Positions 52,126 to 58,826 of a DNA stretch of 64,000 nt are shown in pieces (the first letter of the stretch is position 1; every line of letters starts with the position of its first letter). The DNA is from Pseudomonadota bacterium (GTDB lineage Bacteria; Bdellovibrionota; Bdellovibrionia; Bdellovibrionales; Bdellovibrionaceae). Made by a program: the position numbers and the translations under genes. The notes beneath the pieces were generated by a model. That model was not told the DNA's origin. It made no database searches and saw only the letters and a list, made by a program, of their open reading frames with translations. The stretch lies in contig JBEGVH010000020.1 in the NCBI GenBank assembly GCA_041178425.1, positions 32,001 through 96,000 on the forward strand. The letters run 5' to 3'.

Positions 52126-52202
52126 GCGGGTGTAGCTCAGTTGGCTAGAGCGCAACCTTGCCAAGGTTGAGGTCGTGGGTTCGAGCCCCATCACCCGCTC
52201 CA
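52126..52202 (+). tRNA. tRNA-Gly (GCC)
   Basis: GCGGGTG acceptor stem, CAACC-TTGCCAA-GGTTG anticodon arm, GGTTCGAG T-arm, encoded CCA. Confidence 0.97.
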
Positions 52203-53441: not shown

Positions 53442-53631
53442 CGCCTTTTTGCACCAATCATGTTGAACTCTGCTATAATTCCAACAAAAACACCAGTCCC
53501 ACTATTAAACAGAAGCCATTTATATTTGTTTCCATTCTTGCCCCCCCTAGTACTAACGCAGAACAACAGCATTTAGAGCCATACAAATAAATCCCCTTGA
53601 CCCCATAGACCTATTGACTACTGTTTTGCCC

Positions 53632-54216
53632 ATGACCAATGCGATTACAGACTTTATCGGTGTTTTTAGCAATGCCTACTCCAGTGAATTTTGCGAGCAG
53701 GCCATCAACACATTCAAAATGGCTGAACAGTACGGCTTCACTGTCAACCGGCAGGAGCACGGCAACGCCAAAAAAACGGCTAAAGATACAAACTCTTTGT
53801 TCATCTCCGCCGAAACTAGCTTTGAATTATTGCATACAGCCCAACTCAGCAGCGAGTTTGGTCGCATTTTCTGGAGCGAAGTTTATCCTGCTTATGCCTC
53901 GAAATATTCTATTCTCGAGGATATGGATCCTCATCGCTATTACTGTTTAAAAATGCAGAATACAAAAATCGGAGGCGGCTATCATATTTGGCATCAAGAG
54001 AATAGTGTTATCAACCAAAGGCGGCTGATAAACTTTATGCTGTACCTCAACACAGTCGAAGACGGTGGAGAAACAGAGTTTCTCTATTACTCGCGACGAA
54101 TCAAGCCAGAAATGGGAAAAATTATTATCTACCCTGCGGGATACACTCACACCCATAGGGGTAACCCGCCCCTTTCGAATGAAAAGTTCGTGATCAACGG
54201 ATGGCTGGAGTTTTAA
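53632..54216 (+). CDS. 2OG-Fe(II) oxygenase (phage-type, prolyl-hydroxylase-like)
   Basis: YHIWHQE, LYLN..EDGGETEF, THTHRGNPP..EK motifs. Confidence 0.85.
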   Translation: MTNAITDFIGVFSNAYSSEFCEQAINTFKMAEQYGFTVNRQEHGNAKKTAKDTNSLFISAETSFELLHTAQLSSEFGRIFWSEVYPAYASKYSILEDMDPHRYYCLKMQNTKIGGGYHIWHQENSVINQRRLINFMLYLNTVEDGGETEFLYYSRRIKPEMGKIIIYPAGYTHTHRGNPPLSNEKFVINGWLEF

Positions 54217-54217
54217 C

Positions 54218-54562
54218 ATGACGACTATCGAAAACCTTCCTCTGATAGCAGAAAAAGATTATAAATATAGTTTTCCCTACGGTTACTGGGCCGAGCCTCA
54301 AATTCAAGTTTTAAATGGCACCTATGAAGGGCTTGTCTTCGACGTAATGAAATCAGGAGTGGGAAAATTTGCAAACGCCGATGATTATCAATTTACGTTT
54401 TCTTACCGAATTTTACGAATGTGGAAAGACGTACTCCCCGCTCAATTTGATGGCGCCAAAATCACTCTTCAAGATCATGATGTGACTTTTATAAGTAAAC
54501 TCATCTTGAGCTTCATCGAAGACTTTAACAAGAAGAAGAGTCATGGCACTACCCGGAACTAA
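54218..54562 (+). CDS. Phage-like hypothetical protein
   Basis: Tightly coupled in the operon; resembles, from memory, small proteins of T4-like phages. Confidence 0.55.
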   Translation: MTTIENLPLIAEKDYKYSFPYGYWAEPQIQVLNGTYEGLVFDVMKSGVGKFANADDYQFTFSYRILRMWKDVLPAQFDGAKITLQDHDVTFISKLILSFIEDFNKKKSHGTTRN

Positions 54563-55451
54563 TCAATCGATATCGCTTTCGCAGGTCAATACAGAGCTGG
54601 GAAAATCCTCTACGGCCACCATCTCACTTAATGATGCTGCCGTGCGAGCACTGTTCGGTAAAGCAACGGGAGCCATCTCCTTTGCTGATGGCTGGGGAAA
54701 AATCAACCCCTGGACAGGAGCCATTACCTCAAATCAAACGGTAGTGAACCTTAGAACTTGGGCCACCAGCGCTGGTTGGAATGGCACGGTTCCAGCCATC
54801 ATCACACTCAATGCCAATTGCTATATTTACTCAGGCAATACAGCATCGAACGCACTCACCATTGATGGCTCTTGGCCTAATGGCGTGACCTTCGTAAATA
54901 ATGGCTTTGTGCTCGGTATGGGGGGCGCTGGTGGGGCAGGGGGCACAGGTTCAACGTATCCCTATTACACAACAGCGCCGGCCGCATTCAATGGCTCAGC
55001 TGGTACCAACGGAGGGAACGCTATTTCTCTTGGCGTTAATTGCACGATCGCCAATAACGGAACCATCGCCGGAGGCGGAGGGGGCGGAGGCGGTGGCGCC
55101 ATCACGCAATACCTACCAATGTGGGGTACATTTATTATGGATGATGATTTTATAGTGGCCGAATTCAGTGGCGGAGGCATGGGTGGGGGCGGAAAAACCG
55201 GACTCACGAACAGTACCGGCGGAAACGCAGGAACCTCAACAAATCCCGGCGCGGGAGTCACTAATGGTGGGGGCGGAGGAGCCTGGGGAACAACCGGGGT
55301 AGCAGGTACAGCACCCGCTCTACCCGCCAATAAAACATTAACAAGCAAAGGCACCCCTGGTGCCGGAGGGGCCGCCGGAAAGTGCGTAGCCCTTAATGGC
55401 TTTACGGTCACTTGGGCCGCCACCGGAACCAGAGACGGCGCTATTTCGTAG
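54543..55451 (+). CDS. gp38-like receptor-recognising glycine-rich adhesin
   Basis: N-terminal ISLSQVNTELG..ISLND..VRAL..AISF motif, NNGFVLGMGG and NNGTIAGGGGGGG, multiple polyglycine motifs; no signal peptide. Confidence 0.75.
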   Translation: MALPGTNQSISLSQVNTELGKSSTATISLNDAAVRALFGKATGAISFADGWGKINPWTGAITSNQTVVNLRTWATSAGWNGTVPAIITLNANCYIYSGNTASNALTIDGSWPNGVTFVNNGFVLGMGGAGGAGGTGSTYPYYTTAPAAFNGSAGTNGGNAISLGVNCTIANNGTIAGGGGGGGGGAITQYLPMWGTFIMDDDFIVAEFSGGGMGGGGKTGLTNSTGGNAGTSTNPGAGVTNGGGGGAWGTTGVAGTAPALPANKTLTSKGTPGAGGAAGKCVALNGFTVTWAATGTRDGAIS

Positions 55452-55459
55452 GAGGCAGA

Positions 55460-55759
55460 ATGACGACAAAGTATGGAGTTTATAATCCTCAAAAAGGTGA
55501 ATACGATTTGTTTAAAACCAAAGAAGAAGCCCTTGAGGCTTTTTGGGAAAGAGTTATCGCAACAGCCAAAGAACATTACCACAACACCGCTTATACGACT
55601 ATTCATTACAACGAAGACGGAACAGAGACTTGGTTGAATGAGAGCGACCAAGAGATCACCAAAAAAAGAACTCTTAATGAGATCAAGGCGATTCTCAAAC
55701 ACGAACAAACAGAGATTCTCGCTAAAGCGCAACAAGTAAAAGTAGAGAGGTTCCCATGA
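55460..55759 (+). CDS. Small phage-like hypothetical protein
   Basis: SD GGAGG, ATG 55460; KYGVYNP..GEY and DGTETW motifs. Confidence 0.65.
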   Translation: MTTKYGVYNPQKGEYDLFKTKEEALEAFWERVIATAKEHYHNTAYTTIHYNEDGTETWLNESDQEITKKRTLNEIKAILKHEQTEILAKAQQVKVERFP

Positions 55760-56304
55760 GAAAAACCGCCAGTTTAGGGTATTTTGGCAACATTTGGGTA
55801 CGACAAAATCTGATAGAGAAAGCCGGCGATTCTTACCAAGGGCATACTCACCACTTTGACCACGTGTCTTTGTTAATAAGCGGCAAAGCCCTTGTTGAAG
55901 TCGAAGGGCACTCGCCAAAAGAATTCACGGCTCCCACTTTTATTGTTATTCGCAAAGAGGTTGAACACAAGTTCACCGCCCTCGAAGACAATACTGTGTG
56001 GTTTTGCATTTTTGCTTTGAGAGATATCGACGGCGAAGTCGTTGAAGACCTCTACGGACCACAGCATGACCCCTTACACGAATGGCGCAAACTCGAAGAA
56101 GACACGCGAGAGGAACTCCTCAAACAAAAAGAAAACGAGAGTGAAGAAGCCTACAGAAAACGAATGCTTGAACTCGATGAAAAAACAACTCAGATGATTC
56201 ATAACGCCGCAATCTGGAATGAAAATCGCAAAAAGAAAATGCAAGAGCTGCGAGATCAAAATACGACTCCCGATAATCTAGTGGCGACTCCAAACAACGC
56301 CTAA
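55756..56304 (+). CDS. Cupin-fold protein (phage-type)
   Basis: GHTHHFDHVSLL..G and EHKFTALEDNTVWFC. Confidence 0.75.
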   Translation: MRKTASLGYFGNIWVRQNLIEKAGDSYQGHTHHFDHVSLLISGKALVEVEGHSPKEFTAPTFIVIRKEVEHKFTALEDNTVWFCIFALRDIDGEVVEDLYGPQHDPLHEWRKLEEDTREELLKQKENESEEAYRKRMLELDEKTTQMIHNAAIWNENRKKKMQELRDQNTTPDNLVATPNNA

Positions 56305-56309
56305 ATACC

Positions 56310-56340
56310 AAAAAAAAAGGGGGGCCCAAGAGCCCCCTTT
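56310..56340. terminator. Bidirectional terminator between convergent genes
   Basis: A-run, GGGGGC-loop-GCCCCC, T-run. Confidence 0.8.
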
Positions 56341-56359: not shown

Positions 56360-57082
56360 TCAATAATCCCGACGCTGTGATTCTAATTCTCCAACACGGG
56401 CCTGTAATTCTTTAATGCCCTCAATAAGCAAGGGAATGATCTTTTCATATTGCACTGTTAGGTAGTTTTCACCCGAAATCGATTGATATTGGTTGTTCTC
56501 ATTGAGTCGACTATCGAAGGGCGCCAGCTGAATCGCCTCTGGGAGAACTTTTTGAATTTCTTGCGCAATCACTCCCACCTGCTGAGAACCATCTTTAAAA
56601 CCGTGAGCCTGAGCACGCGAGTTCATATTAAAATAGCAACCTGAGATTTGATCTATTTTTGCAAGCGCGCTCTCGATGGGGCGAATATTTTCTTTTAAAC
56701 GATAATCCGAAAAATAGGCGGTGATGTTATTGGTGGCGCGAATTTCACCAGCACTGCCAGCCGTTGTTCCCACTCCAATCGAAGACACCTGATAGGTATT
56801 TGCAGTTACCAAGGCTGAAGCCGAACTGGCGGTTCCGGCATTACCTGAGACATTGATTGACCATGTTCCCGAAGCACCAGTGCCATTCGTAGAGGGAGCC
56901 CCACAATCAGAGGCCACGAGTGTCACCGCTCCGGTCTTTCCAGCCACACTCGTCACAGGGGCCGATCCCACTTTTTGCCATGTGGCTGCACGGGCTGGGC
57001 GAATAAAACCCAAAATCATTTGAGAGATCAAACCAAAAAAACCGGTAATAAATGCAAATCTAAAAAAGTTACGTCGTTTCAT
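56360..57082 (-). CDS. Tat-signal short tail-fibre tip with peptidase S74 intramolecular chaperone
   Basis: SD AGGAG; MKRRNFF + hydrophobic core + ARA; VTSVAGKTGAVTL; SDYRLKENI...GVIAQE...LIEGIKEL. Confidence 0.85.
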   Translation of the reverse strand: MKRRNFFRFAFITGFFGLISQMILGFIRPARAATWQKVGSAPVTSVAGKTGAVTLVASDCGAPSTNGTGASGTWSINVSGNAGTASSASALVTANTYQVSSIGVGTTAGSAGEIRATNNITAYFSDYRLKENIRPIESALAKIDQISGCYFNMNSRAQAHGFKDGSQQVGVIAQEIQKVLPEAIQLAPFDSRLNENNQYQSISGENYLTVQYEKIIPLLIEGIKELQARVGELESQRRDY

Positions 57083-57251
57083 TGTCACTCCTAAACAATA
57101 AAAAAATCGATGAGAATCCCGCGATCAAGCACGCTTCAAGTTGAGCCGACCTCTTCCTATTTTTGAGCCGAAGAGCATCTCACGTCAACGAGTTCGAAGA
57201 ATCATCAAAACCAAAACAAAAATAGTTTTTATTTATTGAAAGGAGCCAGAC

Positions 57252-58826
57252 TTATTTACAGACAAAGAGATCCCCGTTGGAATCAACGCCTAGACTTCCG
57301 GTGGGGGAACAATTAGAACCACTCGTCACGGTTCCCAACACCAAGTTAGTCACCCGAGCCGTACCATTAACATCGAGCTTGTAAGCCGGAGAACTCGTAC
57401 CGACACCAACGTTACCACTCGCATCGATTCGCAGAGAATTGCCACCATTGTTATATATATCAACCACGCCATCACTCGGTGAGAAAAACCCAGTATCCTG
57501 ACTAGCATCTTGAGTGAAAGCAAAACCACCGGCTGTACCCGCACCTTGGGAAGATAAAATTTTTGTGGAAGCGTTGATAATACCAGCTACATCTAGCTTG
57601 TAGGCAGGCACTGTGGTTCCGACCCCTACAATCCCCGTTGATTTCCAAATGCTGAGGCCAGGCAGATTAACATCTCCCGAAAACGTAGGGCTTGCTGTTT
57701 TAGCTGCATCAGTGATCCCGTATCCATCGATGGTGGTGGGCTTACCCGTGGTGATCTTATTCCAATCGAGCGAGGGTATATCCGCGGCCACTAAACTGCT
57801 ACCAGAGGTTACGCGACCTTTCGCATCTGTTGTCACTTTGGAATACGTGCCCGCCGTGCCCACCGACGCTAAAGTCGCAACGGCATTACCTGCACCTGAG
57901 CTCGTCACATCGCCGCTTAATACCGAAATACCATCGGTTATTCCGTAACCATTCAAGGTTGAGGGTCTGCCTGAAGTTATTATGCTCCAATCGAGTGAGG
58001 GTATATCTGCAGCCACTAAACTACTACCAGAGGTCACACGACCTTTCTCATCCGTCGTAACTTTGGAATACGTGCCCGCCGTGCCCACCGACGCTAAAGT
58101 TGCAACGGCACTACCAGTACCAGTAGTCGTAACATCACCACTCAGTGAGGTTATTCCACTCGTACTACCCGTTCCACCGCTGCTACCTCCACTACTGCCA
58201 CCACTGCCAGGCTGGGCGTATTTGTTCGATGTACCAGCAATCAATGCCAAAAGGTCGACGTAGTTTTGGTTTGTCAGAGGTGGTGCTGTAGCGCCTTCTA
58301 CTCTCAAAACGCCACTACTTGGAATTCCAGCAACGTTAAAAGTATCCAAGGAATGAGGGCTTGCCATTATTTCTACGGGGTCGACATTCTCAAAACCACC
58401 ACCAGGATCGAACGACATCACTAAATAAAGCTTGTCGCCCGGCACTCGTTCAAAGCCTCCAGCACACTGGGTTGAATTTAAAACTTTAAGATCTGGATTA
58501 AAGATTTTTCCAAAACTCAGTGGGTTCGTATCCGTTCGCTGACCCTCACCCAAAAATAACGAAAAGTACCCTGGCGATAAGCTCATGTCTTTTACGAATC
58601 TCTCAGAATAAAGAATACAAGTTTTGTTAGGAGCGGTGATAGAAACCATAAATTGCACATTGGTTCCAGCGACAGGCTGCCCGTTTCTATCAACGATACG
58701 ACCCTGATAATTCAGTCCCATTGACGATCGATCAGGGGTAGCAAAAGCCGCCGGAGCCGTTCCCAAAAAGTAAAGGCTAACTAAAATCAACAATGCTAAA
58801 TATCTTTGAATAACTAGATATTTCAT
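57252..58826 (-). CDS. Secreted trimeric adhesive fibre (MAT-like stalk with phage tail-fibre repeats), no S74 domain
   Basis: Sec signal ending AFA, LNYQGRI N-terminal domain, GTYSKVTTDxKGRVTSG repeats, GxVGVGT..PAYKLDV repeats. Confidence 0.8.
   Translation of the reverse strand: MKYLVIQRYLALLILVSLYFLGTAPAAFATPDRSSMGLNYQGRIVDRNGQPVAGTNVQFMVSITAPNKTCILYSERFVKDMSLSPGYFSLFLGEGQRTDTNPLSFGKIFNPDLKVLNSTQCAGGFERVPGDKLYLVMSFDPGGGFENVDPVEIMASPHSLDTFNVAGIPSSGVLRVEGATAPPLTNQNYVDLLALIAGTSNKYAQPGSGGSSGGSSGGTGSTSGITSLSGDVTTTGTGSAVATLASVGTAGTYSKVTTDEKGRVTSGSSLVAADIPSLDWSIITSGRPSTLNGYGITDGISVLSGDVTSSGAGNAVATLASVGTAGTYSKVTTDAKGRVTSGSSLVAADIPSLDWNKITTGKPTTIDGYGITDAAKTASPTFSGDVNLPGLSIWKSTGIVGVGTTVPAYKLDVAGIINASTKILSSQGAGTAGGFAFTQDASQDTGFFSPSDGVVDIYNNGGNSLRIDASGNVGVGTSSPAYKLDVNGTARVTNLVLGTVTSGSNCSPTGSLGVDSNGDLFVCK
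57708..58157 (-). repeat. Two tandem 225-bp (75-aa) fibre repeats
   Basis: Units 58157-57933 and 57932-57708; 41 identical bp at 57835-57875 and 58060-58100. Confidence 0.9.

Follow-up and report, generated by a model that had tools for sequence, protein, structure and literature searches.

MAT (mosaic adhesive trimer) fibres are the main lead on the question of how predatory bacteria come to recognise so many kinds of prey, and the MATs described from Bdellovibrio are, in the accessible parts of their description, single chains whose tips have been swapped in evolution (PMC10769870). Exchangeable tips are also a feature of the R64 shufflon, in which, according to the available portions of two sources, repeats act as crossover sites that change the C-terminus of PilV (PMC9045228, PMC11852207). 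Here we analyse a MAT stalk gene and a separate tip gene behind it, located in a stretch of 64,000 nucleotides from a member of the Bdellovibrionaceae (GCA_041178425.1, contig JBEGVH010000020.1, 32,001-96,000; this stretch is called the window, and coordinates are positions in it). The facing ends of the two proteins together restore a connector motif of the PilV type. The split between stalk and tip is real and conserved, and we consider it very likely that the two are joined by strand complementation.

The stalk terminates in ...GDLFVCK followed by a TAA stop codon (Table 1). It matches the MAT family NF053851 with 74.6 bits (cut-off 60) and contains twice the capping-loop motif VGVGTxxPxxxL, recognised by eye against the consensus in the accessible part of PMC10769870. 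A Pfam scan gave no match of the stalk to Shufflon_N or to N_methyl (the type IV pilin N-terminus), and no S74 domain, which sits in the next gene. Judged by its N-terminal domain the stalk is a MAT, but one that fails the single-chain tip feature. Its end, which we call the socket, follows the motif C-x(3-6)-G-x-hydrophobic-x-x-D-x-x-G-x-L-x-x-C (with Cys506 and Cys523) and has no Trp strand; the C, G, G and C are invariant across 14 aligned stalk ends. The tip gene starts with an ATG at 57082, 5 nt behind an AGGAG, and its leader (MKRRNFFRF...RPARA, cleavage site read by eye from AxA) is followed from codon 56986 by ATWQKVG, the plug. Both ends were as read in the initial annotation. In four tip homologues (53-66% identity) the leader and xTW[QK]K are preserved, whereas the linker that follows differs by ~50 residues, and the W and K of the plug are invariant in 13 aligned leaders.

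That annotation had also pointed to a continuous connector motif of PilV-type proteins, which the two ends would rebuild with the Trp strand on the second polypeptide. This motif is real: the stalk end aligns with residues 334-359 of R64 PilV (10/26 identical, pairwise E 2e-5), and PilV goes on with SGTWK. Using a 12-base motif that we take to be that of the R64 sfx repeats, we found that all matches in the R64 shufflon region (7/7, NC_005014) encode C-Q-S-G-x-W, one cassette beginning CQSGTWRKVGS, and the protein split thus coincides with the step at which DNA is exchanged in R64. In a Pseudomonas plasmid protein the sequence is CQSGVWKKVGS, and the strand which is here on the second polypeptide is carried in-chain, with the Trp five residues after the Cys, by the intact homologues: R64 and IncK PilV, this plasmid protein, and proteins of the genomes G159 and G661. 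The G159 protein, which is pilin-like and ends ...LLSCQSSIWKN, was found by the stalk-end profile described below, and its connector matches Shufflon_N 284-323. As a separate observation, the six bases after the stalk stop (57246-57251), which in frame would read Val-Trp, are the same in this genome and in G006 (L040:1361-1366) and absent from G109, G111 and G151; they are possibly a remnant of a lost in-chain strand, or due to chance.

An intact fibre gene interrupted by an insertion, or an artefact of assembly, could likewise leave two halves that rebuild one motif, and decayed or fragmented copies do exist in G151 and G072. However, contigs from two other studies span the spacer, which argues against an assembly error: among four of 12 listed metagenome runs that were compared with the junction (X2, possibly the source sample, was not counted), one contig of X3 covers 57034-57864 with 1 difference and one of X8 covers 57039-57287 with 3 differences and 1 gap. 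The spacer is closed in all three frames, so that a simple frameshift does not explain the split, and the junction is single-copy in the genome and without a repeat. As the initial annotation had argued from the second gene's own Shine-Dalgarno sequence and signal peptide, this is no accidental breakage, since both are present, the leader is kept in the four homologues, and fibres from 8 genera in 3 families are split at this point. Breakpoint and leader together refute the broken-gene explanation, to which we assign almost no probability.

To model the joint we used three copies of stalk residues 445-524 with three copies of tip residues 33-78, and three controls. The complex reached an ipSAE of 0.84, the best control 0.01 (the mark for this score is reached by 116 of 157 solved and by 2 of 215 mismatched pairs, counts that are only a rough guide in this case). 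Model runs agree in 100% of contacts, with a partner pLDDT of at least 94. The tip touches the stalk with residues 33-39 only, the stalk contributing residues 500-509, 513, 515 and 519-524, and Trp35 packs against Phe521, Cys506 and Cys523; the confidence of the stalk end is 85-86 with its true partner versus 66-76 with unrelated ones. The model places the first seven residues of the tip on the stalk end, in agreement with the strand-complementation joint suggested in the initial annotation, and indicates that the two parts fit, not that they bind. Sequence comparison with solved structures gave no match to the socket or to the PilV connector. No match in a fold search with a low-confidence connector model (mean pLDDT 44) exceeded Z 3.5, and comparison of the connector with a beta-prism of the Mtd_N type gave a weak match (Z 2.1, root-mean-square deviation 2.8, 40 residues aligned to residues 5-49 of 1yu0).

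Open-ended stalks recur in relatives. A profile built from six stalk ends and searched against 384 genomes of the order returned 24 rows in 18 genomes, of which 19 were open ends, one was intact (that of G159) and 4 were noise. The open ends belong to 14 long fibres in 12 genomes, which stop 0-2 residues after the Cys, and to a 67-codon remnant in G072; in an NCBIfam scan of 12 of the 14 stalks, 9 pass NF053851, one has a partial match and two have none, the three that fail the cut-off being truncated by contig ends. For 9/14 stalks the neighbouring gene encodes a leader with xxW[KQRM][KR] behind it, and for 12/14 such a gene lies within three genes, the two exceptions being G068, whose contig ends 200 bases on, and G111, whose two tips are on other contigs. 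Because the loose tip motif is rare (10 of 2996 open reading frames in this genome), this linkage is more than chance. Four of the fibres (L161, L162, L165 and L167) carry two stacked open motifs with no Trp between, which suggests up to six heads per fibre. Among 386 genomes drawn from the phylum 8 matched, the new ones being G427 of another family, the intact G661 and three NHL-repeat rows. The G427 fibre (1136 aa) lacks a MAT domain and terminates in ...LLTCQ-stop; behind it lie three tips, paralogues of one another, whose starts are ATWKS, ATWKK and ASWKK. A third stalk type, on the metagenome contig L027, ends ...MLVCRN-stop. Apart from the near-complete assembly of G427, the single-contig genomes matched in the order and phylum scans have no open end, a scarcity that may explain why model strains did not reveal the split. 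In other searches, an exact DNA pattern for the stalk end matched 8/384 genomes (control 1; 3 of the 8 outside fibre frames) and missed 9 stalks later found by the profile, and a homologue search gave 50 matches, 42 being NHL-type or other repeats and 8 fibre-type, several of these from the same organisms as G000, G111 and G151. Seven of the 8 end at Cys-Lys, and one (P0263) runs into unrelated sequence. Stalk residues 370-524 as query gave generic fibre repeats.

The tips that go with such stalks share the plug and are otherwise unrelated, their bodies comprising the S74 fibre, RCC1 propellers, glycine-rich proteins and others. A tip-start search of the 384 genomes of the order matched 9, of which 6 have real tips (G072 5; G111, G109 and G006 2 each; G000 and G151 1 each), and outside G000 the bodies found in this way are RCC1 propellers, not S74 fibres; many tips linked to open-ended stalks have Sec-type leaders and glycine-rich bodies. 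In a table of 26 tips, which excludes from a 16-match list P0243 (the same as G151), P0248, P0253 and P0254 (unrelated), and P0251 and P0255 (not viewed), the plug occurs once in 17, twice in 8 and three times in 1, always spaced by 13 residues. Tandem plugs (9/26) stand at positions 1, 14 and 27, away from the peptidase site; the tips of the four double-connector stalks have one plug each. We rejected the plug as a closure strand of the propeller, which in a monomer model of a two-plug tip closes without plugs, residues 1-27 being unstructured (pLDDT <50). Plug repeats, unlike bodies and these unstructured residues together indicate that the motif is neither mere peptidase context nor propeller closure. 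Four matches outside the tip family in one homologue search were discarded as other twin-arginine proteins or noise.

A scan with the leader alignment found L027 and one spurious locus among the matches listed for metagenome contigs, one weak match (L028) in genome contigs and none in viral contigs. On L027 (2617-9955), ten listed secreted tip genes starting QTW and differing in their C-termini, two of them near-identical, lie behind one beta-fibre and a lytic transglycosylase gene, as in pil operons. Most of these tips combine an N-terminal plug with a further, internal intact connector; compared with plasmids, no whole-protein relative was found.

These data also bear on a different explanation, according to which the stalk end is a self-sufficient cap, while xTWQK serves to process or sort secreted proteins under common regulation and does not itself dock on the stalk. 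It would account for a motif lying right at the predicted cleavage site, for the weak profile homology of the socket to intact connectors and for the five tips that G072 retains with only a stalk remnant found, but not for a motif that follows twin-arginine and Sec-type leaders alike, repeats downstream in 13-residue steps, is carried as an in-chain strand by intact homologues and is docked on the socket in the model. We therefore regard it as improbable and favour the strand-complementation joint. Of the three refuting outcomes named in the initial annotation none was observed, and two of the checks, on intact homologues and on the modelled fit, spoke for the joint.

Several points nevertheless weigh against this joint or its use for exchange. 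An hhalign comparison of the socket with intact connectors gave a probability of 9% (E 0.004), and our own hidden Markov model of the intact motif scored no stalk significantly. Part of the model score may stem from a learned resemblance to intact in-chain motifs, a common effect when a split gene's halves are modelled together, and such likeness may play a part even though no solved complex resembles this one by sequence. The genomes compared are kin and not independent, most are fragmented assemblies, and the linkage of stalks and tips carries no P value. In G072, 94% complete, five tips stand against a stalk remnant of 67 codons without start codon, directly before an intact tip (L063, G072:C18:1882-1977); the G111 tips are separated from their stalk, and the G151 stalk lies in two frames and its tip has only 143 aa. 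The tip leader of our locus has no match to TIGR01409, and the genome has a single tip.

We propose that the stalk, as a MAT, leaves the cell through Sec and trimerises, as is known for the family. Its last domain would be a small beta-connector of the type that closes the constant region of shufflon PilV, bounded and presumably bridged by Cys506 and Cys523; the chain breaks off directly behind the second Cys, so that the last strand, with the Trp, is missing. The tip would be made and exported separately, removal of its leader would expose the xTWQK N-terminus, and the two would join after export: in the model the tip strand pairs with the last strand of the stalk and buries Trp35 in the open connector, with three strands per trimer. 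Since the plug is the only part common to the tips, one stalk could accept tips of different bodies. The tip of our locus, a phage-derived S74 fibre, would most likely fold and self-cleave in the cytoplasm, leave through Tat and, with less certainty, might carry a leaderless gp38-like adhesin on its end. By analogy with other MATs, the fibre likely serves prey or surface recognition.

Whether tips are exchanged is a separate matter. The initial annotation had suggested that different tips could be plugged onto a stalk, and had proposed to look for further fibres and tips of this type in the genome. A scan found only this stalk and this tip, and exchange is thus suggested by the relatives, where such partners do occur, and not by the window: four tips surround one stalk in G065 (C194), two accompany a stalk in G069, three in G427 and ten listed in L027. 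Loci in which one stalk goes with several unlike tips support the plug-in idea directly by comparison. In G006 and in G109, two tips were found alongside a single detected stalk end. The joint could also be real with each stalk keeping one fixed partner, the split serving export routing or evolutionary modularity with no mixing in the cell. The single pair in this genome, the tip being the next gene in 9/14 cases and plug flanks that differ between loci would suit fixed partners, whereas the loci with 2, 3, 4 and 10 tips per stalk, as well as G006 and G109, speak against them; we regard fixed partners as less likely than not. In a bolder reading, to which we give somewhat less than even odds, the system would act as a shufflon at the protein level: a cell would make a single stalk and several tips, each exported on its own, and would display them in mixed combinations, with passenger adhesins. 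In this arrangement at least three unrelated types of stalk would have had an R64-type connector opened to form a socket; a trimer would bear three tips, and one with a double socket six; a monomeric propeller with two or three plugs in tandem could cap a trimer by itself; and twin-arginine tips finished in the cytoplasm would carry leaderless phage adhesins out, giving a fibre of stalk, adaptor and adhesin.

The tip leader carries a twin-arginine motif, KRRxFF, recognised by eye, and the genome encodes TatC (245.7 bits), so that export is probably by Tat; however, TIGR01409, which does not match this leader, scores above its cut-off in 4 of 13 other twin-arginine tips scanned. The joint does not depend on Tat, since the leaders of many relatives are of the ordinary Sec type. 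PF13884 (S74) matches the tip with 56.9 bits (cut-off 22), with SDxxxK at Ser125, where cleavage would leave a tip of 92 residues; from the family, self-cleavage would be expected on trimerisation. Signs of cytoplasmic finishing accompany twin-arginine tips, namely the S74 chaperone here, sulfotransferase and glycosyltransferase-like genes near several RCC1 tips, and leaderless adhesin-like genes next to the tips of G133, G090 and this genome.

Table 1. Features of the stalk and tip locus and of the convergent cassette.
Feature	Position	Strand	Basis and remarks
Stalk gene, 524 aa	57252..58826	-	Open reading frame and NCBIfam NF053851; Sec-type leader, MAT N-terminal domain, trimeric fibre repeats, open C-terminal connector
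MAT N-terminal domain, residues 34-159	58350..58727	-	NF053851; presumed cell-proximal anchor, role postulated in the accessible part of PMC10769870
Acceptor socket, residues about 499-524	57255..57332	-	Stalk-end alignment, model interface, R64 PilV match
Spacer, 169 bases	57083..57251		Stops in all three frames, single-copy
Shine-Dalgarno-like AGGAG	57088..57092	-	Sequence; 5 nt before tip ATG
Tip gene, 240 aa	56360..57082	-	Twin-arginine-type leader, donor strand, short phage-type trimeric fibre, S74 chaperone
Tip leader, residues 1-32	56987..57082	-	KRRNFF, Gly-rich hydrophobic stretch, basic c-region, ARA; kept in P0002-P0005
Donor strand (plug), residues 33-39, Trp35	56966..56986	-	Model contacts and conservation
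Peptidase S74 chaperone from Ser125 (SDxxxK), terminal coiled coil	56363..56710	-	Pfam PF13884
Terminator-like hairpin and T run behind tip gene, between convergent genes	56320..56337	-	Consensus match only
Leaderless gp38-like glycine-rich adhesin, 302 aa	54543..55451	+	Pfam GP38 (PF05268), 33.4 bits, cut-off 25
2OG-Fe(II) oxygenase	53614..54216	+	Pfam; convergent cassette, putative link to fibre only
Cupin-like open reading frame closing cassette	55756..56304	+	Pfam, below cut-off; putative link to fibre only

The host genome (3.06 Mb in 43 contigs) has about ten MAT-type fibre genes, and freshwater and lagoon metagenomes hold near-identical DNA; no RNA data set was among the runs listed with it. 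Terminator-like hairpins numbered 10 against 7.4 in shuffles, and promoter scans stayed at chance level. A five-gene cassette (53614-56304, + strand) converges on the tip gene and encodes the oxygenase, a 114-aa open reading frame, the gp38-like adhesin, a 99-aa open reading frame and the cupin-like protein; it lies 1.4 kb from a tRNA-Gly gene (52126-52202) and adjoins a cysteine desulfurase gene. The N-terminal module of the gp38-like protein was found in 11 of 49 phage loci with tip relatives, as the next gene in 9, some loci being duplicates. The oxygenase, the cupin and the two small genes matched in 0/49 of these loci, and the cassette is thus not shown to be a phage block. By analogy with phage fibres, the gp38-like protein might plausibly cap the processed tip and be exported as its passenger, forming a third tier. 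The gp38-like gene shows indels and cover gaps in contigs of other samples. Leaderless glycine-rich or DUF7483 genes also lie, at L160:2660-3550, L166:8244-10274 and L166:14994-16775, beside twin-arginine tips with a KWxGGTxP-type domain at the C-terminus, and are candidate passenger adhesins.

Other fibre loci of relatives and of G000 were seen along the way. The RCC1-propeller tips at L066 (G006:C35), L064 (G109:C94), L068 and L073 sit among sulfotransferase, APS kinase and sulfate adenylyltransferase-like genes, together with glycosyltransferase-like and methyltransferase genes; the Ser/Thr-rich repeats of RCC1 tips may be glycosylated or sulfated. Other short fibres with leader and S74 domain (L024:5299-6573, L025:5374-6447) begin with Cys-rich peptides and not with a Trp plug, perhaps a different joint. 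At C9:255846-266994 and C26:35741-38257, G000 has a second fibre class besides the MATs, comprising several genes whose products combine a pilin-like N-terminus with an S74 domain or an intact connector at the C-terminus.

If tips are indeed exchanged, predators could shift to other prey by switching on, or taking up, small tip genes. With a seven-residue plug to fasten unrelated heads to one stalk, prey range could vary without recombination, and small phage-derived adhesin genes would work once given a leader and a plug. The joint would also tie together MAT fibres and the R64 shufflon, which have been studied separately. Surveys of single chains miss such tips, as open-ended MATs look tip-less and their tips have no MAT domain.

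With the MATs, as far as the accessible parts of their description go, the fibre shares the leader, the NF053851 N-terminal domain, trimeric beta-fibre repeats and S74 among other variable tips, but its tip is encoded by another gene and carries a leader of its own, and its stalk ends in an open connector. With the R64 shufflon it shares what appears to be the same connector motif and a boundary between constant and variable parts at the same Cys-to-Trp step. However, R64 swaps its tips by DNA inversion into one fused chain, whereas here the polypeptides are separate, the junction has no repeat, and a MAT domain takes the place of the pilin N-terminus; in its proposed working the system resembles a shufflon, without belonging to that class. 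F-ENA/F-BclA, in the portions available (PMC12357932), also docks trimer on trimer (3+3) by a short N-terminal peptide, and a separately encoded tip fibre uses the same hook; it differs by its DUF4183 fold, its occurrence on spores of Bacillota, a polymeric shaft, a hook held in the cleft between protomers and one conserved tip, in contrast to a PilV-type connector missing a strand, a stalk of one long chain and diverse tips. DUF4183 had no Pfam match in stalk or tip at E <= 0.1. In the donor-strand exchange of chaperone-usher pili, a secreted subunit lends its N-terminal strand to a second one, whose fold is thereby completed. Those subunits are Ig-like monomers that need chaperone and usher and form a polymer, whereas the connector here is trimeric and just one joint has been seen; no chaperone-usher component was among the 12 local proteins scanned, a local scan and not a genome-wide search. 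The available text of PMC7616799 touches on this exchange. The gp37/gp38 fibres of T2, T6 and S16, as far as their description is accessible (bioRxiv 10.64898/2026.05.12.724579), combine an S74-processed fibre with a separately encoded glycine-rich adhesin and are likely a model for the tip and the gp38-like gene, although gp38 caps the C-terminal fibre end, leaving the N-terminal joint with the stalk unexplained, and the gp38-like gene is here convergent and not downstream. No two-part MAT or separately encoded PilV-type tip was found in the literature searched, whose coverage leaves out most subscription papers, and a term search of the supplements of PMC10769870, including tables of other strains (one scanned PDF being unreadable), gave no two-part MAT; the accessible part of a 2026 review (PMC13689555) adds nothing on them. 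The closest known counterparts of the two-part fibre are the MATs, the R64 shufflon and the docking of F-ENA/F-BclA.

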